From a virus (taxonomy: Duplodnaviria; Caudoviricetes), in IMG/VR virus record IMGVR_UViG_3300005544_000005, positions 5,204-69,203 of that record: a stretch of 64,000 nt of DNA, one strand, 5' to 3'. The notes beneath the pieces were generated by a model. It was not told where the DNA came from, searched no databases, and saw only the letters and a list, made by a program, of their open reading frames with translations. Made by a program: the position numbers and the translations under genes. Positions 24,678-62,720 of the stretch are shown here, in pieces (the first letter of the stretch is position 1; each line of letters starts with the position of its first letter).

Positions 24678-25108
24678 CCATGAGCGGTGGATCATTCAAT
24701 TACCTATGCCACTCAGACGAGCCGTGGCATCGCAGCGAAGACCTAGAGTCTATGGCCGAAGCCCTAGACCAACGCGGATACGCCGATGCTGCCAAAGAGA
24801 CTAGGCAATGGTTACATTACACTCCGGCCGCACCGCGAGAGGTATTAAAAGATCTGTGGTGGGCTGTTGAATGGAAAACGTCTGGGGACTCGAATGAGGA
24901 AGTCGTAATAGACGCCTATACACAATATCAAGCCTCAGACGCTATTCCATCGTTAGACACTACTGTGCCAGTCTCGCGGCAAGCTTTACTGGCCGCTATA
25001 CACAAGGCTAGGACTTTATACGCCGAGGCTGTCACGGCCGGCGATCATGTCCTACCGGGTCACGAATGTTGGGCTGAATTCGAGCGATTAGCGGAGTATT
25101 TAATTTGA
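24674..25108 (+). CDS. Hypothetical protein
   Basis: MSGGSFNYL start; overlap-coupled. Confidence 0.6.
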   Translation: MTMSGGSFNYLCHSDEPWHRSEDLESMAEALDQRGYADAAKETRQWLHYTPAAPREVLKDLWWAVEWKTSGDSNEEVVIDAYTQYQASDAIPSLDTTVPVSRQALLAAIHKARTLYAEAVTAGDHVLPGHECWAEFERLAEYLI

Positions 25109-26529: not shown

Positions 26530-26544
26530 AGGCGGATTAATGAT

Positions 26545-26751
26545 ATGACACGTAAAAAATCACACACTGAGCACGAAATGCTCGCAACTATAGAGAAACT
26601 ATACGATCAACTTGTAGAGGCGCGAATAAATACGCGGTGCTTCTGCCATGGTACGCGACACTATCCTTGTCCACGCTGCGAAGTTACACACACACAGACA
26701 GACGATATGCTAGATCTTATTGTGGCTGAATACGGATTCGAGCGGCGTTGA
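26545..26751 (+). CDS. Small Cys-rich protein between the polymerase halves
   Basis: CFCH...CPRC; GAAGG SD. Confidence 0.55.
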   Translation: MTRKKSHTEHEMLATIEKLYDQLVEARINTRCFCHGTRHYPCPRCEVTHTQTDDMLDLIVAEYGFERR

Positions 26752-26752
26752 A

Positions 26753-28057
26753 ATGGACCTTACCACTCTCTGGCACCACGGCTCTTATCTCTCTACTGTC
26801 TGGGATGACATGCAGTCCCGCGGGGTGCCCGTCCATATACCCTCCCTGCGTATACTTGCCGTGGAGCTGGAATCTTCCATGCGTGGCATAGGCGCCTTAC
26901 TCTCGTATCAATTCTGGGGCGGGCTGCCATTCAATCCTAATTCCCCGCCACAAGTAGAGGAATTACTCAAACGTCGTGGCCTAGTTGGATTAGAGCGGAA
27001 TTCCAAGGGCGGCTACTCCACTTCCAAGAAATCCATCGAAGGTTTGCGTTACACAGACCCGGCATTGGCTATGGTATTCGACTGGCGCGAGCATGAGCAT
27101 ATGCTCTCCTCTTTCATCTGGCCCACGCTAGACGATATCCCGGACGATTACGCTGGCACTCATTGGCGTCTCCGCGGCCGTATCAAGAACACCCGCACCA
27201 CGTCACGTCGTCTTGCCGCCGAAGAGCCTAATCCTCTAGCATGGCCTAAGCACTCTAAGCTCGCCAAGCGTCTGCGTGCCTGTTGTAGCGCACCGGATGG
27301 ATTCCAGATCGTCGCCGCTGATTACTCGCAGATTGAAGTCCGTGGCATGGCTAACGCTTCCGGCGATAGACTAATGTGCGATATCTTCAATCGAGATCCA
27401 GCGCGCTATTCCAAGATCGACCGCGACTTTCACATTCAAACTGCGTCTCATCTATTCGGAGTGGCTCCGGCTGATGTAGACGACGATACTCAGCGCACGC
27501 CGGCGAAACGTATCACCTTTGGCGTAGGCTATGGTCTACGCGGCCATGGTCTCGCCGCTCAACTCCAATCCTTTGGCATAACCGGCTGGCCTGAAGATCG
27601 TTGCGAGGAATTCATTCGCGAATGGTATCGACTCTACTCAGGTTTCGCCAAGTACGCTGAAGATTGCACACGTGAGGCCAAGCGCACAGGAATATGTTTT
27701 GACGAATGGGGCATGCCCAGATACGTACCTGGTGTATGGTCGCGTACGCCAAAGATAGCGGCGGAATCTGCCCGACACTTCGTATCCCACCGTATTCAAG
27801 GGTGGGCACAGGGACTGATTCAAAACGCTATGAGATCGCTGAAGCCTATCGTCCTTGACTGGCAAGATAGCGGATTGCCTATCTATTGGCTGCTACAGGA
27901 GCACGATGCGTTAGTATTCGAGGCTGGCGAGGAAGCCGTAGAGACCGTTAAGCCCGTAATCGTCAATGCCATGGTTCATCATCATGGTTTGTGTACGTGT
28001 AAGGTACCTATCGAGGTTGACGTTAAAGTGACTAAGGCTTGGGGGAGTAAGCCATGA
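26753..28057 (+). CDS. polA: Family A DNA polymerase, polymerase domain only
   Basis: AADYSQIEVR, RTPAKRITFGVGYG, QEHDALVFE. Confidence 0.9.
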   Translation: MDLTTLWHHGSYLSTVWDDMQSRGVPVHIPSLRILAVELESSMRGIGALLSYQFWGGLPFNPNSPPQVEELLKRRGLVGLERNSKGGYSTSKKSIEGLRYTDPALAMVFDWREHEHMLSSFIWPTLDDIPDDYAGTHWRLRGRIKNTRTTSRRLAAEEPNPLAWPKHSKLAKRLRACCSAPDGFQIVAADYSQIEVRGMANASGDRLMCDIFNRDPARYSKIDRDFHIQTASHLFGVAPADVDDDTQRTPAKRITFGVGYGLRGHGLAAQLQSFGITGWPEDRCEEFIREWYRLYSGFAKYAEDCTREAKRTGICFDEWGMPRYVPGVWSRTPKIAAESARHFVSHRIQGWAQGLIQNAMRSLKPIVLDWQDSGLPIYWLLQEHDALVFEAGEEAVETVKPVIVNAMVHHHGLCTCKVPIEVDVKVTKAWGSKP

Positions 28058-28336: not shown

Positions 28337-28828
28337 ATGTCGGACGACAACATTAATCGCACGACCGATCTATCCACGCTAACCGAGGTCAATCCCGGTC
28401 TCGCCGACGTACTGTCTTCTTTACTATCCGAATACACCTCTCTCGCCGACACTATCGACTCCGCCAAAGCACGCCAGTCTGAGATAATGGCCATAGTGGA
28501 ACCGTTAACAGAGTCAGCACAGTTGAAATCCGTCAAGTCCGACAAGTGGACATTGTCGCGCACGAAAGGCCGAACCGGTGCCACGTCTGTGTATCTTCCC
28601 GGTTTACTTCAATATGGCATACCGGCGGAGGCACTAGTGAGTGCTATTCATAAGATCGATGTCACTGCTCTCAGTCAGCCTAAACTAGTCACGGAGTACG
28701 GTGTGCATATAGAGGTGTTGAAGGTCGCACTTGAAGCATCATCTAGTAAAGCGCCAGACGGGCAGGCGTTTTATACTGTACGGCGGAAGAGTGACAAGAA
28801 CGACAACGGCAAGGATGGCGGTAAGTGA
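28337..28828 (+). CDS. Hypothetical protein
   Basis: AGGAG SD. Confidence 0.65.
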   Translation: MSDDNINRTTDLSTLTEVNPGLADVLSSLLSEYTSLADTIDSAKARQSEIMAIVEPLTESAQLKSVKSDKWTLSRTKGRTGATSVYLPGLLQYGIPAEALVSAIHKIDVTALSQPKLVTEYGVHIEVLKVALEASSSKAPDGQAFYTVRRKSDKNDNGKDGGK

Positions 28829-29754
28829 CGGCTATGTTACAACCTTTAACCTTAACCGATCCGATCGGCCCTAAAACCCCTGTTTTAGATCACGGATATA
28901 TCCAAGCAATCGAGGCTTGGGGGTGTGACGAGAGGATTATTGAAGCCGCACGAATGTCAACGGGAAAGGGGTTTCTAGGGTGGGGTAATTCTACCTATAT
29001 AGAGTGTCTTAACCCTAACGGATCGTGTGTCGGCTACTCATGGCAAACAAATTCATCCGAAAACGATGCTATAACCGAAAGAACAGATTTAGGGCTAGGA
29101 ATGCGGTGTCCGTTTTGTTCGGCTGTATTGGTTGTGAACAAGGCTAAGTCGCGCATAGGAGACGGAAAACTACTCCGTTACCTCTACGAACACAAACACG
29201 CCACGCCGTTCGAAATGGCTGGCCTAGTAATCGAAGTACAGGCGCCTATTTTCGTATTCCGCGAATGGCGCACACATCGAACGTGTACACAGACAGAAGA
29301 GGAGATGTTTTGGGACGACGCGTACAATGAGATGTCGGCACGTTACACACCATTACCATACCTGAATTATATCCCAACTATCGAACGATTGCTTATCAAT
29401 AGCAAATCAAATAAGCAAGCCGGAACGGTAAAAGGCGCCGAGGAATTAACCGAGGAAAAGGCGTTAGAATTTCAAGCCGCCCTCTCCTCCGAATATGAAT
29501 ATCAAGAGAAAATCTATCAAACCGCTCTAGCTAACGGCGTGCCTAAAGAACTCGCCCGTATTCACCTCCCTGTAGGCCGCTACTCTCGTATGCGAGCCTC
29601 AGCCAATCTCCGCAACTGGCTAGCCTTCCTCACTCTCCGCATGGACGCGGCGGCTCAATGGGAAATCCGCCAATATGCGAACGAAGTGGGTGTAATCATC
29701 TCGCAACTCTATCCGCGCACATGGGAATTATTCGTGGAGGATAAAAAGATATGA
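28825..29754 (+). CDS. thyX: Flavin-dependent thymidylate synthase
   Basis: KHATPFEM, FVFREWRTHR, NEMSARY, ELARIHLP, NLRNWLAFLTLR...AQWEIR. Confidence 0.9.
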   Translation: MTAMLQPLTLTDPIGPKTPVLDHGYIQAIEAWGCDERIIEAARMSTGKGFLGWGNSTYIECLNPNGSCVGYSWQTNSSENDAITERTDLGLGMRCPFCSAVLVVNKAKSRIGDGKLLRYLYEHKHATPFEMAGLVIEVQAPIFVFREWRTHRTCTQTEEEMFWDDAYNEMSARYTPLPYLNYIPTIERLLINSKSNKQAGTVKGAEELTEEKALEFQAALSSEYEYQEKIYQTALANGVPKELARIHLPVGRYSRMRASANLRNWLAFLTLRMDAAAQWEIRQYANEVGVIISQLYPRTWELFVEDKKI

Positions 29755-44103: not shown

Positions 44104-45621
44104 CTACCACATCACCCCCGCCCTTATCCCGCTAATACCCAGCGTCAATTCATTATAAGCGATTGCGCTGGCGTCAACCCATTCGTCCTCGTCTTCGTCA
44201 TCGCCTACAAAGTCGCACATTAGATCTATATATCTAGCGTTCCAAGGACCTCTCACTATCGCCACATTCCCGGCTTCACACTCGGCCCGGAAAGCACTCG
44301 ATTTCGTGACCTTATCGACCATGGCCACAGTCCACATATAATCCCATCCGGCGAATGATCGCTTCCGACTCTGTACCACAGCGTCTCCGCTGGCCCCTGG
44401 CTCTCTCTCTTCTCGAATGGCACACGCCCGGCCGTCTAGTTCTGCCAATTGATGCATCATCATATCGACACCAAGATCCGTCAACCGCTCGTCCTCGTCT
44501 CGAAAAGCGTCTTCGATATAGAATCGCGGGCTAGCTTTCGGATCGATTGTCATAGCTATCTTGACACTGCCTGTGTGGTCTTTCGCTTTACCTGTCGCAG
44601 TGTCCCACCCTCTTACTCTACGCACCCGATACGGTACTTGATTGGCATCCACAAATTGCTGGAAATACTTCCGTTTGAATAGTCCGCCGGCCAGTGGAAT
44701 AGGGTGCTGTTGTAGTTGCGCGGCAGACCCGTACGGACCTAGCTCTATCTCTAATTCGCGCACCTTTTTCTCATTAAATACACCGGGAAATAATAGCTCG
44801 CCCTCTACCGTTCGCCAGTCGTGCTTATCCGGTGTAATAATTCGTACCTTATCTGGATCGGTCGGGTCTGCCCTTGCCGGCTCGAATCGCATAGGTAGGA
44901 CTAATCGTTCCCACCCACCTTTGCCCATTAAATGGCCACTTGGATCATCCTTATGCAGCCTCTGTCCGACATTCAATACAACCGGGTTTAACCTTTGTCT
45001 TGTAGGCAGCGTGAAGTCTAGGAACCCATGCACCTTCTCACGCGCCTTTTTCGATCTCGCTTCCTGCGCTTTCAACAAGTCGTCTAGGATAATCCTATTC
45101 GGATGTTCGCCGGTTATCGCCCCACCCACCGATGACGCTATCCTATACCCGCCGGCGGAATTCATGAACTTTTCAAGCGCATTCGTCCCACGTGCCAATC
45201 TCACGTCTAGGCTATCCCACCCGGCCGATTCCCTCGCCGATTTAATCCAAAATGATTCTCTATACCAGTCGGATTGGACTATCGCGCGTGAACAGGTATT
45301 ATCCCGGATAGTATTGTCCGGTGCGTACGCCACGGAGATGTAGCGATATTGTGGCCGCTTAATCCATTCCCAGCACGGCCAGAAGACGTTAATGATCGAT
45401 GACTTGCCACAGCCTGGTGGGATGTTGATATCCCACTTGCGAGGGAGTTCTCCGGCCGATATGGACATTAATAGATCGCATAATACGTCTAGATGGCGAC
45501 CCCATTCGAGCTTGCGTCCTTGCGAGTAAGGGTAATACTCCCAGGCGCCGCGAATGAAATCGGGTAGCGAGTCCGCATACAGTGACGTGCGGAGGGAGGA
45601 TAGGGAGAGGGAAACGCTCAT
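44104..45621 (-). CDS. terL: Terminase large subunit
   Basis: NIPPGCGKSS, ILDDLL, QRLHKDDPSG, YSAAQLQQHP-like segment, RGWD, DEWVDA. Confidence 0.9.
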   Translation of the reverse strand: MSVSLSLSSLRTSLYADSLPDFIRGAWEYYPYSQGRKLEWGRHLDVLCDLLMSISAGELPRKWDINIPPGCGKSSIINVFWPCWEWIKRPQYRYISVAYAPDNTIRDNTCSRAIVQSDWYRESFWIKSARESAGWDSLDVRLARGTNALEKFMNSAGGYRIASSVGGAITGEHPNRIILDDLLKAQEARSKKAREKVHGFLDFTLPTRQRLNPVVLNVGQRLHKDDPSGHLMGKGGWERLVLPMRFEPARADPTDPDKVRIITPDKHDWRTVEGELLFPGVFNEKKVRELEIELGPYGSAAQLQQHPIPLAGGLFKRKYFQQFVDANQVPYRVRRVRGWDTATGKAKDHTGSVKIAMTIDPKASPRFYIEDAFRDEDERLTDLGVDMMMHQLAELDGRACAIREEREPGASGDAVVQSRKRSFAGWDYMWTVAMVDKVTKSSAFRAECEAGNVAIVRGPWNARYIDLMCDFVGDDEDEDEWVDASAIAYNELTLGISGIRAGVMW

Positions 45622-45660
45622 CTCTTTAAATTCATCTAGGTTCGTCTAAATGGGCGGCTT

Positions 45661-45900
45661 TTAAGAATAATGGGTGGAGTCTATCTTTAGATTTACGTCC
45701 GTCCCATAGTACGATAACCGATCTAGCGGGCCCCATACCGCATCCGGTCGCTTATCTGGAGATTTGCCACGCCCTACGACAGTGCCGCAACGTGATTTGT
45801 CGGTGCGCTTGAAAAATGACGGTTGACGGCTAGCAAATTCGGATAGTATAACACGGTCGCCTAATTTGAATTCATTCATGATTTTAGCTATATCAGACAT
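45661..45900 (-). CDS. Hypothetical protein
   Basis: FKLGDRV start; overlaps upstream gene. Confidence 0.5.
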   Translation of the reverse strand: MSDIAKIMNEFKLGDRVILSEFASRQPSFFKRTDKSRCGTVVGRGKSPDKRPDAVWGPLDRLSYYGTDVNLKIDSTHYS

Positions 45901-46267
45901 AATACACCTTTATCCCCTTCTTTATCGCCCGCTTAATACAGTCCTCTGTTCCGGTTCCGCCCGGGAACGCAATCCACCCCACTGCTCGCGGTTCTTTCCT
46001 AATCATTCTCCCGTTACGATTATTGCCAGCACAGTGCCAGCTAGGACCATCAATATTAATATCTATCGGGACAGGATCTAGCATGAAGCCATGATCTCTA
46101 GCGTATTCAGACGCTTTGGTATCTACACCTCTGGCGGCACCATGGCGGATAGTATTAGCGTTTAACGATTCGGCGATTGATATAAATGCACGTAATTCAT
46201 CCTCGCTTGGTCGATAGTCACGACCGCCTGTAATGCCTATTACGACAGGAGTAATTGACGTGCTCAT
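45893..46267 (-). CDS. SLOG-superfamily (DUF2493/YspA-like) protein
   Basis: IGITGGRDY, HGAARGVD, AGNNRNGRM, IAFPGGTGT. Confidence 0.8.
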   Translation of the reverse strand: MSTSITPVVIGITGGRDYRPSEDELRAFISIAESLNANTIRHGAARGVDTKASEYARDHGFMLDPVPIDINIDGPSWHCAGNNRNGRMIRKEPRAVGWIAFPGGTGTEDCIKRAIKKGIKVYYV

Positions 46268-46445
46268 CTGTAGTCGTCCCACGCTATACCGCGGCGGTGG
46301 CGTTCGTTATGAATCTCGCGGCGTGAGTATAAATCATAATCGTTATCCAACCGGTCTAATGCCCATTTCGGTTTGTTAGGCGGAGTGGGATCTGGCGGCG
46401 GATCGTTTGAGATATTACGTTTGGGTGATTTACGTTTGCTCATTT

Positions 46446-46763
46446 CTATATCACTACTCTTTCAATCGTCACACCTAATTTCTCTGCTATTCTGGCGCAC
46501 GTTGCACATGGATCGATTGGCAACAACTCACCGCAACTCCCCACCCTAACTATTACTATTCTCGTTAGCGACCGCGGCAACCTACGCATTAACACTTCCT
46601 CGGCGTGATAGCCGCGCATGGGTAGACGGGGAGAGTTAACGGCGATTCCGATTATACGACCGCGATAATCAATGCCGGCGGCAGCGACTCGATAACGGCA
46701 CGAGGTGACACGTAGAGCCGCGCGGATCATGCGCGCGTGGAGAATGGAGGGGTGGGATTTCAT
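46446..46763 (-). CDS. Zn-dependent cytidine-deaminase-fold protein
   Basis: VAAAGID, HAEE, PCATC. Confidence 0.8.
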   Translation of the reverse strand: MKSHPSILHARMIRAALRVTSCRYRVAAAGIDYRGRIIGIAVNSPRLPMRGYHAEEVLMRRLPRSLTRIVIVRVGSCGELLPIDPCATCARIAEKLGVTIERVVI

Positions 46764-46949
46764 CGCCCTATGGTATCTTACTAGAACAACTTATAGAGAT
46801 CTTTACTACGATCCGATATGGTACATTGAATCGCTCGCACAACATGCGTATCACACGCTTGCTAAGTTCTCCGCGCACTAATTGCGGAAGGTAGCCATAA
46901 CGTTCGATATGATCGAAGAATTCAAGCACTGAATCTATAGTACTCGCCA

Positions 46950-47219
46950 TTACGACGACTCCTTTTCCTGTATAGCAGCACCGAGCGATTGAAGCCACGG
47001 CACAACCTTACCGTGGAAACAGTCGGTACACAGATCCACTCTATAGGTCGTGACGCTGTGACCTTCCGGCCATTCATCGCCTTCACGGAATTCGATATAG
47101 CCCTCATCAATACTACAGCCGTATCTAGTGATTTCACTTTCGCAAATGTCGCACGTTTTCCATGTACGAACAACAGTGACGACTTCTTTAGTTTCTTTTT
47201 TGGTTTCTTGACGATTCAT
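46950..47219 (-). CDS. Zinc-finger-like hypothetical protein
   Basis: CDIC...DLCTDC; AAGGAG SD. Confidence 0.6.
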   Translation of the reverse strand: MNRQETKKETKEVVTVVRTWKTCDICESEITRYGCSIDEGYIEFREGDEWPEGHSVTTYRVDLCTDCFHGKVVPWLQSLGAAIQEKESS

Positions 47220-47481
47220 TTGACGTATCTCCTTCTTTAAATCCGTGTTTGGCGCAGGCGGAAACGGTGGGTGTAGGGGTACGGCGTATAACCTCTTTTA
47301 TATTCAAATAATAATTAAATTTATCCACTCTCGCACTGTGCGACCGTTGCATGTTCCGTCCTAGCCATATCTGTCCGTGTATTAGTCCGCTGCGTCTCTG
47401 TTTCTCGGTCGGTTTGCGGCAAACTTCACCGACAGGCGCAGAACATAATGGGCAAACTATTGTGAGACATTTAGATGGCAT
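47188..47481 (-). CDS. Zinc-finger-like hypothetical protein
   Basis: CPLCSAPVGEVC...HSAR. Confidence 0.55.
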   Translation of the reverse strand: MPSKCLTIVCPLCSAPVGEVCRKPTEKQRRSGLIHGQIWLGRNMQRSHSARVDKFNYYLNIKEVIRRTPTPTVSACAKHGFKEGDTSNESSRNQKRN

Positions 47482-47486
47482 TTGGC

Positions 47487-47774
47487 TTACTCCGTCCTCT
47501 TAACTTTTCCCGTCAACCCAGGTGCGTACCTTTCCCCTCTCGCTCTCCACCGCGGCAGTAACGCTATCAAACTCCCATTCCCGCCTGTGCAATCCCAGCA
47601 CTCTCTATTGTCGTGTGGGAGGTATCCTATTCCCGGTGACGGCGCCGGCTCGTTAAGGTCGCGCCAGTCCCAAGTAGGGCGGTCGCGGGAGAGGTAGAAC
47701 AGACAGGTGATGATCATCGAGGCTATGACTAACGCGAATACGGCTAGGCCTATTATTAGATCCAGTGTCTCCAT
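47487..47774 (-). CDS. Small membrane protein
   Basis: N-terminal TM; GGGGAG SD. Confidence 0.55.
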   Translation of the reverse strand: METLDLIIGLAVFALVIASMIITCLFYLSRDRPTWDWRDLNEPAPSPGIGYLPHDNRECWDCTGGNGSLIALLPRWRARGERYAPGLTGKVKRTE

Positions 47775-47812
47775 GTTTACTCTCCCCTTTCCGTACCGGT
47801 ACTACTCCCTTT

Positions 47813-48097
47813 TTATCGGCAGTTATCCGCCGTCGCCGATCCTAGTCCGCCCTCGATTACCGACCGTCGACAGTCGTGACAAGTTAGGTAATAGAGCCCG
47901 CCATCGGATAGCTTAGGCGACGTGGCGTCTACGTTGCCGCGTGGCGATCCGAAGTTGTGACGATTATAGGATGATGATTTACCATGAATAACTCCGGCTA
48001 TACCTTTGGCGTCATCTAGGACGGACTTCATACGACGCGATACGTCGGCGGATGCGAGCTTAGATAATACGGTATTGGCGGTTTCCTTTGCGTTCAT
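47813..48097 (-). CDS. Hypothetical protein
   Basis: AAGGGA SD. Confidence 0.55.
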   Translation of the reverse strand: MNAKETANTVLSKLASADVSRRMKSVLDDAKGIAGVIHGKSSSYNRHNFGSPRGNVDATSPKLSDGGLYYLTCHDCRRSVIEGGLGSATADNCR

Positions 48098-48424
48098 GGT
48101 TTGTCCCTTTCGTTATCCAGCGTCGAGTTAATGTCGCCTTTTTCTTATGTTGCGCCACACACCACTGTGGCATGCTGGCTGTGACACGTCTTGTCTGATC
48201 TTTTACATATGCCGCTGATCCGATCGCAATTGCTATACCACGTCGTTTTAGTTTATATTTTTGATACTTAGTCAGCACTCGCATGTATCCATTGTCGGCG
48301 GAGCATAGCACGGTGCCATCATATATGTGCTGGCGGCAAGTTGGATCTATTAATACAGATGCTAGCATTTTACTTGTTCTTACCGGGAATATAAACCGGC
48401 ATTTTTAAGTCAGTGTCCTCACGT

Positions 48425-48706
48425 TCACCTTGCCTTCTCCCCTAAGATGTATACGTGTGATCGTAATGAGCTGGCTTTAACCTTATGTATTGTGTGCTTG
48501 TCTATTAATACAACTATTGTACGATTCTTGGACATTATACGGATCTTATTGTCATGGCTGTACGATTCATTCGGTAGTATTTTTACTCTCAAGCACGTAT
48601 TAGATGGTATTTTTTCGTCACAACATGTGCACGTAATTACTCCTGTTGTAATATACACCACGTCTTTTTGTAGTAGCGTAGACGATTCCATCTTTGGCGA
48701 TTCCAT
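48425..48706 (-). CDS. Hypothetical protein
   Basis: Abuts AbrB-like gene. Confidence 0.45.
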   Translation of the reverse strand: MESPKMESSTLLQKDVVYITTGVITCTCCDEKIPSNTCLRVKILPNESYSHDNKIRIMSKNRTIVVLIDKHTIHKVKASSLRSHVYILGEKAR

Positions 48707-48709
48707 TTT

Positions 48710-48880
48710 CTATAACTCTCTATCTTCTGTGCTTGTCAGCGTCACGACTTTTCCGCCGTCCGTGCGTACAATTATTCTATCACCTATTTGAAGTCCAGCG
48801 ATGTCCAGTATCCGCCGCGGGATAGAGATAACGACGGAGCCACCGACGCGGCGGAGCTTGGATGTGGTGATTTCGGTCAT
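48710..48880 (-). CDS. AbrB/MazE/SpoVT-like DNA-binding protein
   Basis: SKLRRVGGSVVISIPRRILDIAGLQIGDRI. Confidence 0.8.
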   Translation of the reverse strand: MTEITTSKLRRVGGSVVISIPRRILDIAGLQIGDRIIVRTDGGKVVTLTSTEDREL

Positions 48881-48887
48881 GTGCCCG

Positions 48888-49094
48888 CTAACTGTCCCGA
48901 TCAAATTCGCCTGTAGCAAGAAAGCAGTGGAGAGCGTATCGTAGCTCCTCGATACAGTCGCGATCTACAACAGTAGAGTTGCTGCCGTATAATTTCGTTA
49001 TTTGTACGGCGTCGCCTGATAATCTGGTTATCAGTATATCGGTTTTACCGTTGTCTTTGATCGCTACGGTATCGGATGTTGTGTTTACGTACAC
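48888..49094 (-). CDS. Hypothetical protein
   Basis: AGGAGG SD. Confidence 0.55.
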   Translation of the reverse strand: MYVNTTSDTVAIKDNGKTDILITRLSGDAVQITKLYGSNSTVVDRDCIEELRYALHCFLATGEFDRDS

Positions 49095-49120
49095 CGGTAA
49101 TCCTCCTAATTTGTCGCCAG

Positions 49121-49321
49121 TTAGACGTTAGGGTCGTCTACTATAACTTGCGACAGTTTATTGCCTACTATTTTCTCCGCACGACCGAATAGGCATTCAA
49201 CGATGGTGGCGTTGCCATTATCATCTGGCATTGTGTAGACCACGGTTAAATTACCGGGATAGCTACAAACGAGGACAGGGGAGACGGAGACAGGCCGGCG
49301 TTTCCTTGTTATTTCGTCCAT
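49121..49321 (-). CDS. Hypothetical protein
   Basis: First gene of divergent unit. Confidence 0.5.
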   Translation of the reverse strand: MDEITRKRRPVSVSPVLVCSYPGNLTVVYTMPDDNGNATIVECLFGRAEKIVGNKLSQVIVDDPNV

Positions 49322-49336
49322 GGCTTGCAGCCTACC

Positions 49337-49406
49337 ACATATCCCGCGGATATGTCAACATATCCGTACATATCTCCCACATATCTCACATATATCTGGA
49401 CATACC
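49337..49406. repeat. Phased ACATATC repeats upstream of portal
   Basis: Copies at 49337, 49349 (inverted), 49358, 49368, 49379; variants at 49388, 49400. Confidence 0.8.
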
Positions 49407-49527
49407 TCTACCTGCCTGTGTCCCGGCTGATCCTTTCGACCCCTCCGCCCGTCCCCCGTGTTACCCTTGAGACAAAATACCCCGACCGCCCCAAAATGTC
49501 CCATATCGCTGCCAACCCTGAGACCAA

Positions 49528-51723
49528 ATGACCCAACCGGCCGGGCCTATACTAGATGATGTCAGCGGCCGTCAAGCTGGCGGCAGTGGGGCTGTCTCGG
49601 GCAACGGTGGCGGCGATCCGGCCGGCCCGGCAGCCGGCCTCCACACCCCTCTCGGCCCCTCTGGTCTGCCCGGCCCCGACTCTGCCCTAGTCCGTCTCCT
49701 CTCCTCGGCCCTGGTCGAGCGCCAGCGCTTCCGGGCGTACGGCCCCGGCCCCAACCTCTACGGTGGACGGCGCGACCTCTATGGCGCGGTGGGTTATCCT
49801 AGACAGTTAACGAGTGACGATTACCGCGACTTTTACGAACGTGGCGACGTGGCCGCAAGATTAGTCGAATTCTATCCACAATCGACTTGGTTGCCAGCTG
49901 TCGCGGTGAACGAGATAGATGACCCCGACACACAGACGGAATTTGAGCGTATATGGATAGATTTTGATCGCCGACTAAATGTGATAGCTGACATTTTCAT
50001 GCGCGCCGATATCCTAGCGTGCACGTATCGCTATTCCGTCATCGTGATAGGCGCGCCTGGTGACCTATCGACTGAGCTACCTCGCGGCAATGGCCGCCCG
50101 GATGCTATCAAATATCTAACGGTGCTTGGTGAGGACAGGGCGGCTGTCACTAGGTTAGTCGGCCAGGATGACACCGATGAGAACGGACTATACCCCGGCG
50201 CGACTGGCTATATAGACCCGGTGTCTAGTTCGCGCTTTGGCCTACCGTTAACCTATTGCTGTAAATTCGGCGTTGCCATTAACTATTTCACTAGCGATGG
50301 ATCAGTTAGCTCGTCAACCGGATCGCTAATTGAGCGCGATGTACACTGGTCGCGCGTCTGGCACATGGCTAACGGCACGCTAGACAATCGCGTCTATGGC
50401 CAGTCTATGTATCGGCGCGTGGCTAATGCGTTAATAGATTACCAGAAACTACGTGCGGCCTACGCGGAGTCGGCATGGAGGACGGCGAGCCCCAAGATTC
50501 ATGCCAATATGGACCCGACGATGATGATGTTGCCGGGCGAGGAAGAGCAGTTAAGGGAAGCTATCGATAGGCTACGCCACGATATGGAAGATGTGGTACG
50601 TACCCGTGGTGTGGATATTAAGATGTTGTCATCGCCGGTGGGGTCTATGGAGGCTAACGTCCATACCCTGTTACGTGTTATATCGGCGGCGTGGGGTATT
50701 CCGGCGCGCGTGATGACTGGATCGGAAGAGGCTAAAGCTGCCGGGACGCAAGATGACAGACACACTAATGACAGGCAGACGGAGCGGTGGGGATATTATG
50801 CTACGCCTCAGTTAGGCGGGTTTATCGGGCGATTGGCTGATTACAATTACATGCCGCGGCCGAAGGACTTGACGATTGTCTGGCCGGAGATTGAAGAGCA
50901 CACGGAATCTGAGAAAGCGGCTATCGCTAGTCAGTTGGCGTTGGCGAACAAGAATCAAACAGACGCTCGCGACACGCCTATACGTACATCGGCGGAATTG
51001 AGAGATGAATTGTGGGGATTGAGAGATCCTATTATCATGCCCGACGTCGCGCCGAATGACAATCAAAATCTAAACGATAATCCTATGACTGACAATCCTA
51101 CTGTCGATTCCGTCCGCGCGGCTAGTCAGTCGCCTGATAGCCGCATCATCATCATTGGCGGTCCGCGACGCGGGAAGTCCACTATCGCCCGCAACCTCCG
51201 TACGTCAGCATCGGCTATTCCAACCTATTGTGGCGACCCGGTCAATTTAGTCAAAGAGCCTGAGGACGGTGTCACGTATCTCCCCGCGAATCTATCGTGG
51301 TCGGAATCGTCGGCGTATATAGCTGAGAATTGGCTGACTCAGCCCGGCCCATGGTGCTGTGAAGGTGTGGCGATGGCTAGAGCGGTACGAAAGATGGTAA
51401 TAGCCGGGAAGACTGCCATACTAGACGGCGTGGATATTGTCGTATTGATAGAGCCTTACGAAGGAGCCTCAGAGACAGCCGGCCAGGCGATTATGGCTAA
51501 AGGCGTGATGACAGTGTGGGCGGAGGTGGCTGATTTATTTCCACAAGCTAGGACTATATCGACGGGCAGAAATAGCGCCAATAAACAGTCGCAAGCGCAA
51601 TCCGCCACGGTCGCCAACCGTAAGCTTGACACGTGGGAAGTGACGATGCCGGCCGGGCGCCGTGCGATAGCGTCAAAGAAGAATCACAAATCTAGTCCGC
51701 GGTTTAGTTTTAAGGTATGGTGA
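49528..51723 (+). CDS. Portal protein (DUF1073-like) with C-terminal P-loop kinase-like domain
   Basis: VHWSRVWH, ISAAWGIPARVMTGSE; first gene of head operon; IIIIGGPRRGKST near aa 545. Confidence 0.8.
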   Translation: MTQPAGPILDDVSGRQAGGSGAVSGNGGGDPAGPAAGLHTPLGPSGLPGPDSALVRLLSSALVERQRFRAYGPGPNLYGGRRDLYGAVGYPRQLTSDDYRDFYERGDVAARLVEFYPQSTWLPAVAVNEIDDPDTQTEFERIWIDFDRRLNVIADIFMRADILACTYRYSVIVIGAPGDLSTELPRGNGRPDAIKYLTVLGEDRAAVTRLVGQDDTDENGLYPGATGYIDPVSSSRFGLPLTYCCKFGVAINYFTSDGSVSSSTGSLIERDVHWSRVWHMANGTLDNRVYGQSMYRRVANALIDYQKLRAAYAESAWRTASPKIHANMDPTMMMLPGEEEQLREAIDRLRHDMEDVVRTRGVDIKMLSSPVGSMEANVHTLLRVISAAWGIPARVMTGSEEAKAAGTQDDRHTNDRQTERWGYYATPQLGGFIGRLADYNYMPRPKDLTIVWPEIEEHTESEKAAIASQLALANKNQTDARDTPIRTSAELRDELWGLRDPIIMPDVAPNDNQNLNDNPMTDNPTVDSVRAASQSPDSRIIIIGGPRRGKSTIARNLRTSASAIPTYCGDPVNLVKEPEDGVTYLPANLSWSESSAYIAENWLTQPGPWCCEGVAMARAVRKMVIAGKTAILDGVDIVVLIEPYEGASETAGQAIMAKGVMTVWAEVADLFPQARTISTGRNSANKQSQAQSATVANRKLDTWEVTMPAGRRAIASKKNHKSSPRFSFKVW

Positions 51724-51750: not shown

Positions 51751-53259
51751 ATGCTATCGGCACTCCTCCGGGTCGCCCGCGCTCCGTCGACGGTATCGGC
51801 CGGGGAGAACCGGCAGCGTCGACGTCTCCGAGCGAGGATAAGTAGAGCACAGATAGAGGCCATGTACAATAGAGCAAATAAGGCGGTAGTCGCGAGAGGG
51901 TCTGTGGGCTTATCACGTCCCATTCCCTCGTCTATTCGCTCGGCGACCCGGTCCTTGTCGTTCCGTCTATCCTCAGCCAAATGCCGCGAGGAAACTTATC
52001 TCGGCGAATCACATCTAGTCGTACCGGTAATCCCGTTAGTTGGCAATATAGTATTTTGGCCGACTGGTGCCGAGGGTTATGAATGGGTGCCTGATTACGT
52101 TATCGCCGCCGCTCCGGTTGGGTGGAATAATAGGCCGGTTGTGCCTATTCATCCGGACATATCGCTGCCAACCGCTAATACACCGGAATTCTTGACAGCC
52201 TATTGTTTTGGGCAATTGTTTAATACTTATTACGGTGCCGATGATAAGCTCCACACCGAGGCGTGGCTGAATCGTACCCGTGCGGCGCAAGTGGGGACGA
52301 TGGCAACCGGCGTACTAGCGAAGTGTGAATCCGGTGAAATGGTAGAGGTTAGCGTAGGGGCGCAGATTCAGTTTGAAAAGCGCGCAGGATCGTTCAATGG
52401 TCAATCTTACGTCGGCATATGGCGTGGACTGGTACCAGATCATTTGGCGGTCGGATTGAATGGTTCTGAAGGTGCGTGTTCGATTGAAGCCGGATGTGGC
52501 GGGCCGAGGACGGCAGTGACGAAGATTAAACCTGTTAAGCCTACCGATAAGTCCGATAGGCCGAGATCTAGATCTAAATCTAAATACGTATTCCTAGAAT
52601 CCAATCGTTCACGATTAATAGGAGCTACCACCATGCCAATGCCTTCACTGCGCGAATCCGTTACCGGCCTATTAACCGCTCTTCGCTTATCCGGCACTCC
52701 CGCTGAAGACGCGGAGGAAGCAGCCGAACTAATCGCCTATGGGTCGATGAGAGACTTGGTCGATAATGCAATCGCCAAGCTTCAAGCGGCCAGAGTAGAT
52801 ATTGTATCGCTAATCTCTGCTGAGACAGAATCGCCAACCGAGAGTGTAGAAGCGGAGTCGGCGGAAGAGACTATAGAGCTGGCGCAGTATTCGCGGATTA
52901 GAACGTTACTCTACTCTGCCGGTGATGAAATCTATGCTGCGTCCAGTGTCGTTTACGATCTGTATCGTGAGCACGTGGCCGATAAGTTGGAAGAGGAAGC
53001 TGCTGCCGATGGCGCGACACCGGTTGTGATTGTGGGCGATACGAGATATTACGCCGATGGTAGTGGCGGCGACGGCGCGAGATCAGCAGCCGGCGCGCGG
53101 CACAGCAAAGAAGACATGAAGATGATTCAGTCGACGCACGACACGACTGTCAAGCTCGGCGCTGTGTGTGTGAGCGAGGAGACTAAGGCGGCGGCGGCCA
53201 CGGCCACAGCCACGACCGTTAAACCGTGCGGATGCCACAATCCGGCGTCGTTGTTTTAA
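51751..53259 (+). CDS. DUF2213-like prohead protease with scaffold-like C-terminus
   Basis: WNNRPVVPIHP, EVSVG, PDHLAV, GACSIEAGCG. Confidence 0.75.
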   Translation: MLSALLRVARAPSTVSAGENRQRRRLRARISRAQIEAMYNRANKAVVARGSVGLSRPIPSSIRSATRSLSFRLSSAKCREETYLGESHLVVPVIPLVGNIVFWPTGAEGYEWVPDYVIAAAPVGWNNRPVVPIHPDISLPTANTPEFLTAYCFGQLFNTYYGADDKLHTEAWLNRTRAAQVGTMATGVLAKCESGEMVEVSVGAQIQFEKRAGSFNGQSYVGIWRGLVPDHLAVGLNGSEGACSIEAGCGGPRTAVTKIKPVKPTDKSDRPRSRSKSKYVFLESNRSRLIGATTMPMPSLRESVTGLLTALRLSGTPAEDAEEAAELIAYGSMRDLVDNAIAKLQAARVDIVSLISAETESPTESVEAESAEETIELAQYSRIRTLLYSAGDEIYAASSVVYDLYREHVADKLEEEAAADGATPVVIVGDTRYYADGSGGDGARSAAGARHSKEDMKMIQSTHDTTVKLGAVCVSEETKAAAATATATTVKPCGCHNPASLF

Positions 53260-58688: not shown

Positions 58689-61600
58689 ATGAGCGAACTC
58701 AGATATTTAACGGATGCAGAGTTAGAGCAGGCATATTTCGACGAATCAGAGATTTTCGCTGATACACCAGATCGCGGCCTTGTTAAGGGCCGTTTGAAGG
58801 CGATGATGCGGTCCGCTAACGGGGCACCCGCGAAATACACGTTTATATACGGTTACAAGGTGGACACAACCGATGTCGGAGAAAGCCCATACCGTATCGG
58901 TAGATTTATAGGTACTGCGGGATTTTTTCTTAGTGATATACCCGACCAGGCCGCTATCACCCGCCACGACATCGCCGTCGTTATGATCACGACCGACCGT
59001 GTACCGTCGTATTTCGCGCAAACTTGCCAACTACTCCGCGAGTCAGAAGGGCTAGACAGCTTCCTCGATATCGAGCGGTCTGGTGTGGCTATTTCCACGT
59101 TTATAGATTCGAATCATAAGCCGAATCGTAACGCCGCGCAGGCGCTCGGATGGGGGGCCAGTCAGAATCGCAAATGGGTGTTATTCCTAGAAGACGACCT
59201 TCGATTCTGTAATCGATTCATTGACTCTGTGGCGGCGTGGCTATCAAAATATCATAGCGCTTTTGACAACGGTTACGAACGGTACACCGCATCCCCTATT
59301 TACCTTTTTGGTTCTGCGTCCATTGTCGATACTCCTAAATCGAAAGGTATACATACTGTCTACGAAGGATTACCTCACGGTGACGAGTGGGCATCCGTAC
59401 CTATTGAGGGTTTTTACGGTACGCAAGCTTTTGCAATTCTTGCAGAAGACGCAGCGAGTTTAGCTCAACATCTGGCGGCAACCGACGATCCGGTCGGACA
59501 GTATGACTTGTCTATAGCTAAATGGTGTCATGATTGCTATCCACGCGTACAGTATTTCGTCACTTCTATACCCTCTTTCGTCCAACATATCGGTGAAGAG
59601 TCTAGTATTCGTCCGGGTGGACCACATTTTACTTTCCCGTCGTGGCCGGGTGAGAAGTGGAGTTATTTACAACAGGACATAGACGATAAACGCAAAGAAG
59701 CTGTAGAGGGTATATTCGCTGAGGTTGTAAAGGGTGGTGGTAGGTTCGCAGAAATACCAGGCTCCGATAGCGACGGCAATCTCCGACCACAATCGGCTTT
59801 AACTTCCGTCAAACCTTGTAATCTGATTTGCACCCGCTGCGGCAAGCCTATAGACGAAATGGACGTATCTGTGGGAGATCGAAAGGCCGGTAATAACAGT
59901 CCAGGATATAAATTTGCGCACTACGGCTGCTACTTCGCTGATGAAATATCACATCCTTTGCGCGATCCTGCGGTCCGCGCCGCTTACAAACGCGGCGATA
60001 TTCTCGACGGGCAACGCAGAATGTTGTCTTATTTGGAACAGCAAGAGGTGTGCAGTCCAGAAAAGGGCTGCGGTGTGGCCGCCGACGATCATTTCAAAAA
60101 CCCTGACCGTATTTTGGTGTGCGATGCGCCGCCTAAAGCTAATTTCTATAGCGCCGGGCAAGTAGCGAAAGATGCAAAGAAGATGGCCGCTATTATCACA
60201 GACGGTTATGGGCCCGACATAGTGTTAGCGCCGCCGTCTCAAATACCATCGCCAGAGCAATCGTCAGAGGATACCTTAACGATTAAACCCGGTATGCTTA
60301 TCCAGTACAATAATGCCACCGCAGTAGCTATGTCCTCTAGTACGGTACGCACCTGTACTAATCCGATTTGTCAAGACCGCACACCGAGTGACGCAGAAGA
60401 TCTGCCGCCCGAAGTCGCGTACGATGACAACGACGGCAAAGGCGACCTCTCCGCTCCCATCCTCACAACCTCTCGCCGTGTCCGTGCCGAGGACTTCCGC
60501 TCTGACTGGTTACGCCAATTAGCGGCGGAAATGAATGAACCTGTCAGAATGCACAGGAAGTTGTGGGAGTATGCGGCGATTGCAAAAGTTTATCTAGAAA
60601 GAGTGCCGCGCGCTGGATATCGTGCGTTCGACGCAACCGGGTACCTACGTCCACACGTTCTCGGTTTTGGCGTAGGCCGCGACCCCTTAGCTGTATGGTT
60701 TGCCAGTCGCGGCGCCGTTGTCGTCGCCACGGATAAACCCGAAGAGACGACTAGCGATGATTGGAAGTTAACCGGCCAGCACGCGAGCGGGAAAGATCAA
60801 TTGCGACGGTTGAAGAGCACGACGGATGGGGATTGGAAACGTATTACGTATATGCCGTGTGATATGAATGACATCGCTGTCAAATGGGCCGGCGGGGTTG
60901 ACATGTTATATGACCTCACGTGGTCTTGTGGTTCATTCGAGCATATCGGCGGCATTCAAGCATCCATCGACTTCTTCGTCCGTCAAATGGCCTGCCTCAA
61001 GCCTGGCGGCGTAGCTGTCCATACCACGGAGTATTCTACACTTCACACCATGCTTGACTCGCCAGACCTATGCTTACTCCGCTCGTGTGATATCGCTATT
61101 ATCGCTAGAAGACTAGCGGAACAGGGCGACTTACTCCTCCCATTCGACCCCACGCCAGGGAATGAGCCGGCTGATTTCTATATTGATCGGCCGCCGTATC
61201 CGGGCAATCTAGTTACACCGGTAGAGGGGGCTATCCCGGCAAGTGCGAAGCTAGGCGCTATCGGTCCGTGGCATTTATCGATGGAAGTGGGTGGGCATGC
61301 TACGACATCAATTGTGCTGATTGCAATACGTGGTAATGGCGCGCACGACAAACTCACTGACAGCGAAGTCTTACAAACGGCAAACGCTAATCGTGAACTG
61401 AAAAGCTTATTTTTAGCCGGCAAACCTGATAAAACCATTAAGCCATCTATCCTCTTCCTCGGTGATGCTGTAGTATCTAGCGGCTTTGCAAAGTCAACTC
61501 ACTCCGTATGCAACTATCTTTTCTATCATGGTTGGGATGTACGCGTCTGCGGAATGAATTACTATGGGCAACATATGACAGCTGAGGATCATGCGCGTTA

Positions 61601-62720
61601 TCCGTATCCCATTCACCCCGCATTCGACCCCGTCCATGGCCCATCTTCGCCGGATGGCTCTACTCTTCTCCCGCGATTGATCTACGATTACCGCCCCGAT
61701 ATTGTCGTAATCCAACAAGACCCGTGGAATATCCCAACTTACACTCGTGCGATAGATCAGGCGTTCTCAGCTATCGATCGCGCTACCCCTCCCATTGTCG
61801 GCTTCCTAGCTGTGGACGGCGCCAACCAAGCTGGTATGCCATTGAATCGTCTTGCGGCCGTGGCAACATGGACACAATATGGATTATCGGAATTACGCTC
61901 GGGTGGTTATACAGGCCCGGGCTACGTTATTCCGCTCGGCGTCGATACTGAGGTATTCCGGCCGCTCGACCGTCAAGCGGTTCGCCGGAAATTCGCCGAA
62001 TCCGTTCGCGCGATGCCCGGGAAGCTAGCCGACGACATCGACATAGAGACGACATTTATCGTCGGATTCGTAGGGCGGAATCAGCCGCGGAAGAGGATCG
62101 ATTTACTCCTGCAATCATTCTCAGAATGGATTCGCGGCATTCACGGCAACGAACCAGTCGCCAATGCCATGCTCGTCCTACACGTCGGGCCTACCGGCGA
62201 CACGGGATTTGACATTCCATCTCTCGTTAGGTATTGGAAACTTGACGGGCGCACTATTGTCTACACGCCAGAGATCGGTCAGGGCGAGACCGAGGAATGG
62301 CTTTGTGAGCTATATAACACATTCGATCTATTCGCCACGTGTACACAAGGCGAGGGGTTCTGGTTGCCAGGATTTGAGGCAGCAGCGTGTGGCGTGCCGA
62401 TTGTAGCACCGAGGTATTCAGCGATAAGTGAGCTATTCGGCAGATCTGCTATGATGGCCGAGTGTGTGAGTACGATAGCCAGTGCGCCGATCAATGGCGC
62501 TATGTCTACATTAGGCGGATTGGTATCTATTATACACTTCGTCGAAATACTAAATAAGATGTATAGCGCTAGGAGTCTGCGTGACGGGATAGCCGAGAAT
62601 TGTTTGCGATTGTCCAGTGAATATTCTTGGCAATCAACCGGCTGTCATTTCGAGCAGATGTTACGTGCTATACTAGGTTTTTTAGAAACTCTCGATATTG
62701 ACGACGACAACGACAGCTAG
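58689..62720 (+). CDS. GT-A glycosyltransferase / SAM methyltransferase / GT-B glycosyltransferase fusion
   Basis: LFLEDD and VQHIG; HRKLWEY, LGFGVGRD, SFEHIG, LKPGG; VGRNQPRKRID, EGFWLPGFEAAACG. Confidence 0.85.
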   Translation: MSELRYLTDAELEQAYFDESEIFADTPDRGLVKGRLKAMMRSANGAPAKYTFIYGYKVDTTDVGESPYRIGRFIGTAGFFLSDIPDQAAITRHDIAVVMITTDRVPSYFAQTCQLLRESEGLDSFLDIERSGVAISTFIDSNHKPNRNAAQALGWGASQNRKWVLFLEDDLRFCNRFIDSVAAWLSKYHSAFDNGYERYTASPIYLFGSASIVDTPKSKGIHTVYEGLPHGDEWASVPIEGFYGTQAFAILAEDAASLAQHLAATDDPVGQYDLSIAKWCHDCYPRVQYFVTSIPSFVQHIGEESSIRPGGPHFTFPSWPGEKWSYLQQDIDDKRKEAVEGIFAEVVKGGGRFAEIPGSDSDGNLRPQSALTSVKPCNLICTRCGKPIDEMDVSVGDRKAGNNSPGYKFAHYGCYFADEISHPLRDPAVRAAYKRGDILDGQRRMLSYLEQQEVCSPEKGCGVAADDHFKNPDRILVCDAPPKANFYSAGQVAKDAKKMAAIITDGYGPDIVLAPPSQIPSPEQSSEDTLTIKPGMLIQYNNATAVAMSSSTVRTCTNPICQDRTPSDAEDLPPEVAYDDNDGKGDLSAPILTTSRRVRAEDFRSDWLRQLAAEMNEPVRMHRKLWEYAAIAKVYLERVPRAGYRAFDATGYLRPHVLGFGVGRDPLAVWFASRGAVVVATDKPEETTSDDWKLTGQHASGKDQLRRLKSTTDGDWKRITYMPCDMNDIAVKWAGGVDMLYDLTWSCGSFEHIGGIQASIDFFVRQMACLKPGGVAVHTTEYSTLHTMLDSPDLCLLRSCDIAIIARRLAEQGDLLLPFDPTPGNEPADFYIDRPPYPGNLVTPVEGAIPASAKLGAIGPWHLSMEVGGHATTSIVLIAIRGNGAHDKLTDSEVLQTANANRELKSLFLAGKPDKTIKPSILFLGDAVVSSGFAKSTHSVCNYLFYHGWDVRVCGMNYYGQHMTAEDHARYPYPIHPAFDPVHGPSSPDGSTLLPRLIYDYRPDIVVIQQDPWNIPTYTRAIDQAFSAIDRATPPIVGFLAVDGANQAGMPLNRLAAVATWTQYGLSELRSGGYTGPGYVIPLGVDTEVFRPLDRQAVRRKFAESVRAMPGKLADDIDIETTFIVGFVGRNQPRKRIDLLLQSFSEWIRGIHGNEPVANAMLVLHVGPTGDTGFDIPSLVRYWKLDGRTIVYTPEIGQGETEEWLCELYNTFDLFATCTQGEGFWLPGFEAAACGVPIVAPRYSAISELFGRSAMMAECVSTIASAPINGAMSTLGGLVSIIHFVEILNKMYSARSLRDGIAENCLRLSSEYSWQSTGCHFEQMLRAILGFLETLDIDDDNDS

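Follow-up and report, generated by a model that had tools for sequence, protein, structure and literature searches.

A candidate P-loop kinase-type domain fused to the portal protein of a soil phage

We analysed a 64-kb window, bases 5204-69203 of the 69,203-bp IMG/VR record IMGVR_UViG_3300005544_000005, which belongs to a soil phage (Duplodnaviria; Caudoviricetes), has direct terminal repeats and reaches a CheckV completeness of 100%. One open reading frame (ORF) of this window encodes a protein of 731 amino acids in which a phage portal continues, past a linker rich in Asn, Asp and Pro, into a domain with a predicted P-loop kinase fold and a basic C-terminal tail (Table 1). The initial annotation, made from the nucleotide sequence, had described a portal protein whose reading frame runs on past an Asn/Asp linker; the single 731-residue frame and its matches to PF06381 and phrog_146 bear out this description.

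Table 1. Features of the portal-kinase ORF and of two nearby head genes in the window (pLDDT, predicted local distance difference test)
Feature	Residues	Position	Strand	Basis
Portal-kinase fusion ORF	731 + stop	49528..51723	+	one uninterrupted reading frame
N-terminal Gly/Pro/Ala-rich region	1-49	49528..49674	+	predicted disordered, pLDDT 31-42; poorly conserved
Portal body	50-498	49675..51021	+	PF06381/phrog_146
Asn/Asp/Pro-rich linker	499-534	51022..51129	+	variable; pLDDT <50 for residues 499-524
P-loop kinase-fold domain (predicted, ~145 residues)	535-678	51130..51561	+	AlphaFold2, structural matches, residue conservation
Walker A motif, GGPRRGKS	544-551	51157..51180		
Asp570, after strand 2	570	51235..51237		
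Glu612-Gly613, after strand 3	612-613	51361..51366		
Spacer	679-704	51562..51639	+	variable, identity 0.15; pLDDT <50
Basic C-terminal tail	705-731	51640..51720	+	identity 0.74 among close relatives
Large terminase subunit (TerL)		44104..45621	-	phrog_38 E 9.6e-56; PF17289
Post-portal head gene, DUF2213-like, putative scaffold/protease-type	502	51751..53259	+	phrog_760 E 4.5e-9

The portal and its continuation into a second domain

Residues 80-539 matched phrog_146 ('portal protein') with an E-value of 1.8e-42, and PF06381 (Phage_portal_3 / DUF1073) gave a score of 36 bits, its cut-off being 33.8, and an E-value of 4.1e-9. In a full-length AlphaFold2 model built from 25 aligned relatives, the portal body was placed at pLDDT values mostly between 70 and 95. 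A Foldseek search with this model returned the Sf11 portal as the best match (9yin; E 1e-18, TMt 0.75), followed by the portals of FCWL1, Pam3, HFTV1, T1, G20c and T4. Sequence matches and model together identify the ORF as a genuine PF06381/phrog_146 portal with the predicted wing, stem, clip and crown fold of a portal. Mean pairwise identity in the N-terminal region was 0.19 among seven close relatives. In the linker, the close relatives showed an identity of 0.26, compared with 0.65-0.69 in the flanking domains, and the model predicts that this connection between the portal and the kinase-fold domain is flexible.

An assembly artefact can be dismissed as the source of the fusion, since the identical product is encoded on at least eight contigs, the four listed ones coming from four different ENA/JGI samples, and since six relatives at 59-92% identity share the uninterrupted portal-linker-kinase architecture. 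A further dozen phrog_146 portals carry the kinase-fold domain, down to about 31-41% identity. Across 18 fused proteins the mean pairwise identity was 54% in the kinase domain, 38% in the portal body and 8-13% in the linkers, and the putative catalytic residues were invariant in all 18. Judged from these sequences, the passenger domain is under stronger purifying selection than the portal body.

The initial annotation had also pointed to an in-frame ATG at 51085, where a C-rich composition of the kind found at gene starts sets in. Both features exist. The ATG encodes Met520, inside the linker, and the GC skew of the C-rich stretch at 51013-51200, which covers the linker and the beginning of the kinase domain, is about -0.1 to -0.23 versus +0.1 to +0.35 upstream, in agreement with the C-rich starts noted earlier. 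An independent gene start is nevertheless unlikely and was rejected, because no Shine-Dalgarno-like sequence precedes this ATG, whereas many genes of the window have one, and because Met520 is replaced by Ala in a 92%-identical relative and is absent from the other fused relatives. The compositional reset is possibly the scar of a former gene boundary rather than a working start.

Two separate proteins, with the kinase translated from ATG 51085, or a sequencing or assembly error behind the fusion, were weighed as a rival reading. The ATG and the C-rich shift that starts there speak for it, as do seven loci of the wider family (L001, L024, L025, L027, L028, L030 and L031) at which a homologue has a gene of its own that overlaps the portal gene at its end. 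We nevertheless regard it as scarcely credible: no stop codon separates the two domains, the same ORF recurs on the contigs mentioned above, relatives as distant as about 31% identity keep the fused architecture, and Met520 is lost even at 92% identity from a site that lacks a Shine-Dalgarno sequence. At six of the overlapping loci (L001, L024, L025, L027, L030 and L031) the kinase ORF lies in the +1 frame with respect to the portal. A programmed frameshift yielding a fusion was considered for them and set aside: the portal stop roughly coincides with the beginning of the kinase domain, shortly before which there is an ordinary start codon (one that is annotated in record MW202476.1), and simple translational coupling is therefore sufficient.

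Fold, conserved residues and tail of the C-terminal part

The kinase-fold domain alone (51130-51570 of the window) was folded from an alignment with 22 stand-alone homologues. The model reached a pLDDT of 95.2 and a predicted template modelling score of 0.90, with alternating strands and helices; within the full-length model the same domain had pLDDT values of 85-93. The closest structures were AK6/hCINAP (3iij; Z 9.9), gluconate kinase (1knq; 9.7), adenylate isopentenyltransferase (9.6), adenylate kinase (1aky; 9.2), polynucleotide kinase (4gp6; 8.8), shikimate kinase (2iyq; 8.0) and chloramphenicol phosphotransferase (8.0). The predicted three-layer alpha/beta core superposed on 3iij, 1knq, 1aky, 4gp6 and 2iyq over 121-129 residues with a root-mean-square deviation of 3.2-3.8. 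Every good structural neighbour belonged to the P-loop kinase class. These scores are only modestly higher than the aligner's stated background of Z 7-8, and for the modelled domain they fix the fold class and cannot choose among kinases. Foldseek returned shikimate kinases as the best matches (E 5.5e-4), with Fap7-Rps14 among the others. The P-loop fold proposed in the initial annotation is thus what both structure prediction and the structural neighbours indicate.

Sequence comparison did not narrow the assignment further. None of the Pfam kinase family models (SKI, AAA_33, ADK, dNK, Zeta_toxin and others) matched significantly; the best Pfam matches, nSTAND3, AAA_28 and KTI12, had E-values of 0.1-0.22 and covered the P-loop segment only, and the domain had no PHROG match. 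A profile of 98 sequences searched against the PDB gave one domain-spanning match, to a glucokinase of the gluconate kinase family (4eun; E 3.4e-4). Assignment to a kinase family at the sequence level was therefore rejected, because apart from 4eun the matches in Pfam, PHROGs and PDB profiles cover the P-loop segment only. A Zeta-toxin kinase was likewise rejected, as it had no Pfam match and a Zeta-like viral model appeared only at Foldseek rank 23.

In the 98 diverse members, G15, K16, D36, E78, G79, R84, R87 and Q119 (domain numbering) are invariant or nearly so. Besides the residues listed in Table 1, the key positions in the phage protein are Arg618, Arg621 and Gln653. The conserved pair of arginines lies in the helix after strand 3, and the glutamine opens the helix at the position of the LID; these roles were assigned by position in the secondary structure and not by superposition. 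An acidic residue after strand 2 is the base that activates the acceptor in the kinases for shikimate, gluconate, chloramphenicol and polynucleotides, and adenylate kinase has an acidic residue and an arginine after strand 3. The E-G…R…R pattern after strand 3 resembles, as we see it, the D-G-F-P-R motif of adenylate kinase. By analogy with these enzymes, the pattern of residues looks like that of a working phosphotransferase. No conserved LID arginine was found in the 98 sequences, in which a Gly-Gln (Q119) and a Met are conserved at this place instead, and 145 residues leave no room for an insert that binds a nucleoside monophosphate (NMP). The description as 'NMP-kinase-like' in the initial annotation therefore stands at the level of the fold and lacks support beyond it, given that no kinase Pfam model matched significantly and that the NMP-binding insert and the conserved LID arginine are missing.

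The most conserved stretch of the domain, CGDPxSLVKxPEDGVTYLP, forms a surface hairpin that is specific to the subfamily of this domain and absent from the others. This hairpin could bind protein, which would suit a rival reading in which the domain is not a kinase at all and acts as an assembly factor or switch that binds and hydrolyses nucleoside triphosphates, chaperoning or timing the assembly of the portal ring, scaffold or procapsid. The model for such a function is AK6/Fap7, an ATPase that chaperones a ribosomal protein. AK6/hCINAP is the top structural match and Fap7-Rps14 appears as well, the domain is very small and has neither the LID arginine nor an acceptor-binding insert, and its fusion partners (portal, scaffold and terminase) are all components of assembly. 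On the other hand, the near-invariant Asp after strand 2 and the paired arginines after strand 3 are typical of P-loop kinases that phosphorylate a substrate, the Z-scores fail to separate AK6 from true kinases, and many family members are encoded outside head modules. We consider an assembly switch improbable.

The tail that follows the spacer is rich in Ser and ends with an alternating hydrophobic/basic motif (…RFSFKVW); a basic, Ser-rich tail of this kind closes all phrog_146 portal-kinase fusions. Distant phrog_146 portal-kinase fusions have analogous basic tails with ends of the F/V-x-F/V-x-V type, and the tail is absent from unfused portals and from stand-alone kinases. The last 50 residues are of low confidence in the AlphaFold2 model, and the tail is predicted to be disordered in the monomer. 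It may bind DNA, or the inner surface of the capsid or scaffold.

Fusion partners and gene neighbours of the wider family

When 1.84 billion representative proteins were searched with a profile of the domain, 972 family members reached E <= 1e-3, of which 645 had E <= 1e-10; the 972 are representatives of clusters at 50% identity. They are almost all viral, and neither Pfam nor PHROGs has a name for the family. Most are stand-alone proteins of 130-180 residues; free-standing homologues, which the initial annotation had proposed looking for, thus exist in large numbers. The nearest protein-atlas clusters are labelled 'hypothetical' and are 91-100% viral, and none of the 22 stand-alone homologues had a precomputed Pfam annotation. 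At least 12 of the listed representatives are phrog_146 portals with a C-terminal kinase-fold domain, and two members are fused to a different portal family (phrog_2662/12). The domain is also joined to the large terminase, at its C-terminus in three members (P0092, P0120 and P0134) and at its N-terminus in one (P0045); in P0100 a terminase fragment precedes it, and in one further member it stands ahead of a scaffolding protein. In a FastTree phylogeny of the domain the terminase fusions fell in at least three separate places, and one phrog_2662 portal fusion nested beside a phrog_146 portal fusion; as the tree was built from a short domain, it was used only to show that the terminase fusions are scattered.

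We examined the gene neighbourhood at 26 IMG/VR loci and 5 other loci. The domain was fused to the portal at three of them, overlapped the 3' end of the portal gene at seven, and lay directly 3' of a phrog_113 portal at two. Stand-alone genes were found 4 nt upstream of the terminase at two loci (L023 and L029), and convergent with the terminase or within a few kb of it at about eight (including L002, L005, L011, L012, L013, L015 and L022). At three loci (L014, L017 and L018) the gene lay directly 3' of a gene for an exonuclease-annealing protein, and at L002 it sits after an exonuclease VIII-like gene. No recognisable packaging gene was found nearby at a few of the examined loci. The exonuclease-annealing genes (L014:5041-7002, L017:4936-6999 and L018:4207-5991) are single ORFs that combine an exonuclease (phrog_107) with a RecT/SSAP-like annealing protein. 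The structural gene block of L002 contains a 105-residue Acb2/Tad1 hairpin protein (PF24729; 10821-11138, minus strand).

These partners and neighbours bear on a second rival reading, in which the domain is an accessory enzyme of the packaging vertex that works with the terminase-portal motor in the producing cell, fusion to the portal being merely one means of placing it there. It might phosphorylate or hold the DNA ends made by the terminase, like a polynucleotide kinase, or regenerate ATP or remove ADP, like an adenylate kinase; adenylate kinases tethered to the axoneme offer a parallel for the local regeneration of ATP. Fusion to either end of the terminase at three or more points of the domain tree fits this reading, as do the stand-alone genes 4 nt upstream of, convergent with or near the terminase gene, and those that follow exonuclease-annealing or exonuclease VIII-like genes. 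Since the terminase is not packaged, its fusions fit poorly with an injected effector, and they suggest a role at the packaging vertex at least as much as an injected anti-defence enzyme; the exonuclease and annealing-protein neighbours suggest a job at the vertex or at DNA ends in the producing cell. In addition, the Z-score of polynucleotide kinase 4gp6 (8.8) nearly ties with the top score (9.9). Two members, P0070 and P0081, carry behind the kinase-fold domain a C-terminal HAD-like module with a DxDGT motif ('VDFDGTIHDG'), which recalls Pnkp, but its matches are below threshold (Hydrolase_6, E 0.011; 2obb, E 0.19) and come from one cluster pair.

Several observations speak against an enzyme of the packaging vertex. 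To judge from solved portals, the C-terminus of the portal would lie inside the shell, cut off from the terminase and from bulk ATP once the channel is filled with DNA. Terminase nucleases normally leave 5'-phosphate ends, and given such ends a kinase for DNA ends seems unneeded. RNA ligase, ATP-dependent DNA ligase and 2H enzymes, which could complete the healing of ends, are all absent from the 69-kb genome, and the link to the HAD module remains weak for the reason given. On balance, we judge this reading possible but less likely than not. The broader proposal that the whole family of about 145 residues is an unrecognised, ATP-using component of the packaging vertex, repeatedly joined to portal, large terminase or scaffold because it acts on the DNA end or on local ATP/ADP while the genome enters the head, and not as an injected effector, appears to us somewhat less probable still. 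Avs-type immune receptors sense the portal and the large terminase, and since these are the main carriers of the domain, the passenger might be a countermeasure that acts in cis; this idea is even more speculative.

Two further functions were considered and set aside. When the domain was compared by tblastn with 50,697 phage records, only MW202476.1 matched. As this search revealed no relationship with the DNA kinases annotated in phages, DNA hypermodification by a kinase of the type that acts on 5-hydroxymethyl-deoxyuridine in DNA was set aside as speculative. A phage RNA-repair pathway was rejected on the absence of the ligases and the 2H enzyme from the 69-kb genome.

A possible enzyme carried in the head, compared with known systems

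The portal-kinase gene sits within a head-morphogenesis module. TerL is divergent from it and lies about 4 kb upstream; no small terminase was identified among the genes of the window. Downstream of the portal are genes for a DUF2213-like, a decoration-like, a major capsid protein-like (DUF6260) and an Ad1 adaptor protein. Within 44104-49527, a block of small minus-strand ORFs separates TerL from the portal. For the 502-residue post-portal protein, the nearest named protein-atlas clusters are PF09979 DUF2213, at a score of 0.93 that serves as a lead only. One DUF2213 head-protein cluster in the protein atlas has a 2H phosphoesterase fusion in 72% of its members, and DUF2213 head proteins are a further type of head protein that serves as an enzyme carrier. 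Farther along, the neck and tail section contains an ORF of 1343 residues with GT4-type glycosyltransferase domains (58689-62720; Glyco_trans_1_4, E 1.5e-9), which is kept at the same place in the related phage locus L035. The regions 25105-28057 and 28825-29754 hold a split DNA polymerase A, with one ORF for uracil-DNA glycosylase (UDG) and 3'-5' exonuclease and another for the polymerase, and a ThyX thymidylate synthase nearby. The combination of UDG-PolA and ThyX might hint at an unusual DNA base chemistry; no hydroxymethylase was seen alongside them in the genome.

Sister portals of the PF06381 clade carry a MuF domain (P0009 and P0017) or a 2H/Acb1-like domain (P0010 and P0013) at the position taken here by the kinase-fold domain. 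In P0010 and P0013 the 2H phosphoesterase family PF13563 scored above its cut-off, and the anti-CBASS family Acb1 (PF23474) fell just short of its cut-off, with 23-27 bits against 27. P0010 ends with a ParB-like 'DGHHR' stretch. Passengers are exchanged among related portal carriers, as is characteristic of the portal/MuF-effector type of polyvalent protein. In the relevant passages of Iyer, Burroughs, Anand, de Souza & Aravind (2017; PMC5512222), portal/MuF fusions to an RNase, 2H or InPase are described as packaged and injected effectors. The suggestion in the initial annotation that portals of this kind can carry other C-terminal enzymes agrees both with these relatives and with the portion of that article that deals with portal fusions.

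We tentatively favour the reading that the protein is a portal carrying a minimal, catalytically competent P-loop phosphotransferase as tethered cargo of the head, of the portal/MuF-effector type, although on models and analogy we would place it slightly short of even odds. Because MuF and 2H passengers occur at the same place, and in view of the precedent described in the cited passages of PMC5512222, it is the simplest reading. The domain ahead of the scaffolding protein was counted in its favour too, as the scaffold is likewise internal to the procapsid.

The crown formed by the C-terminal part of solved portals points into the capsid. By analogy with them the domain would lie inside the procapsid or capsid, with as many as twelve enzyme copies, each on a tether of about 35 residues, surrounding the inner opening of the DNA channel. 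Its chemistry would be an ATP-dependent transfer of a phosphoryl group, as in shikimate, gluconate, polynucleotide and adenylate kinases. Lys550 and Ser551 would bind ATP-Mg, Glu612 would take the Walker-B role and Asp570 would be the base that activates the acceptor, whereas Arg618 and Arg621 would bind an acceptor bearing a phosphate, which would make a nucleotide or a nucleic-acid end the most likely substrate. At the portal, DNA or nucleotides may be what the enzyme acts on, either in the head while DNA passes or, once it has been released (possibly through proteolysis in the linker), as the next infection begins. That it phosphorylates nucleotides or defence signals, as first proposed, is pure conjecture.

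Four points weigh against a head-carried cargo. Fusions to either end of the large terminase occur in several separate lineages (P0045, P0092, P0100, P0120 and P0134), and because the large terminase is not a virion protein, a purely delivered cargo fails to explain the whole family. The lack of a conserved LID arginine would also suit an NTPase or a nucleotide-binding switch in place of a kinase. A domain that stays on the portal cannot be injected, and both the cleavage site in the linker and the protease are only postulated. Finally, the interior location is carried over from other portals.

Portals, the rings through which DNA enters the capsid, are usually regarded as passive. From portal-enzyme fusions it seems that phages use the portal to position enzymes where every genome must pass, and the partners and neighbours of this family (two portal families, the ends of the terminase, a scaffold and exonuclease-annealing genes) hint unusually directly at its workplace. 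Its substrate, once found, would define either a new enzymatic step in the packaging or ejection of DNA or counter-defence enzymes of a new class that are carried in the head, and would let many 'hypothetical' genes of head modules be annotated.

Like the polyvalent proteins, the phage protein combines an N-terminal portal and an enzymatic passenger in one polypeptide encoded in the head module. It differs from them in that this passenger family also occurs on the large terminase and is often encoded outside head modules, and in that a single passenger and a conserved basic tail take the place of a long multi-domain chain. In the passages of PMC5512222 that deal with these fusions, the portal passengers named are the PBECR RNase, 2H and InPase, and the passages on kinases concern Ser/Thr/Tyr-type protein kinases and do not mention a P-loop kinase on a portal.

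With the shikimate, gluconate, AK6, adenylate and polynucleotide kinases the domain shares the Walker A motif GxxxxGKS, the alternating alpha/beta fold (Z 8-10), and the acidic residues after strands 2 and 3 followed by arginines. Unlike the solved P-loop kinases, it has only about 145 residues, without an NMP- or acceptor-binding insert and with Gln instead of the LID arginine, and it has an Arg within the P-loop (GGPRxGKS) and an identity to them of 9-20%. T4 Pnkp is likewise a small P-loop kinase with an Asp ending strand 2; the order of a kinase followed by an HAD-like module recurs, with a sub-threshold match, in P0070 and P0081, and the family is also associated with enzymes that handle DNA ends. 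In contrast to T4 Pnkp, the domain has no ligase partner in this phage, and the two show no significant sequence match (1ly1, E 0.71, P-loop only).

The homologue in MW202476.1 (Caudoviricetes sp.) is 34% identical over the domain (tblastn E 2e-7), and its gene overlaps that phage's portal gene at the 3' end, but it is a separate protein of 149-168 residues and lacks the basic tail. It is annotated as an 'ADP-ribosylation factor-binding protein', a name that is uninformative and probably wrong. A literature search found no published description of this kinase-fold family or of the fusion. Portal-enzyme fusions are a known kind, and what is new is this kinase-fold family, its breadth, its repeated fusion to portal, terminase and scaffold, and the tail specific to the fusions.

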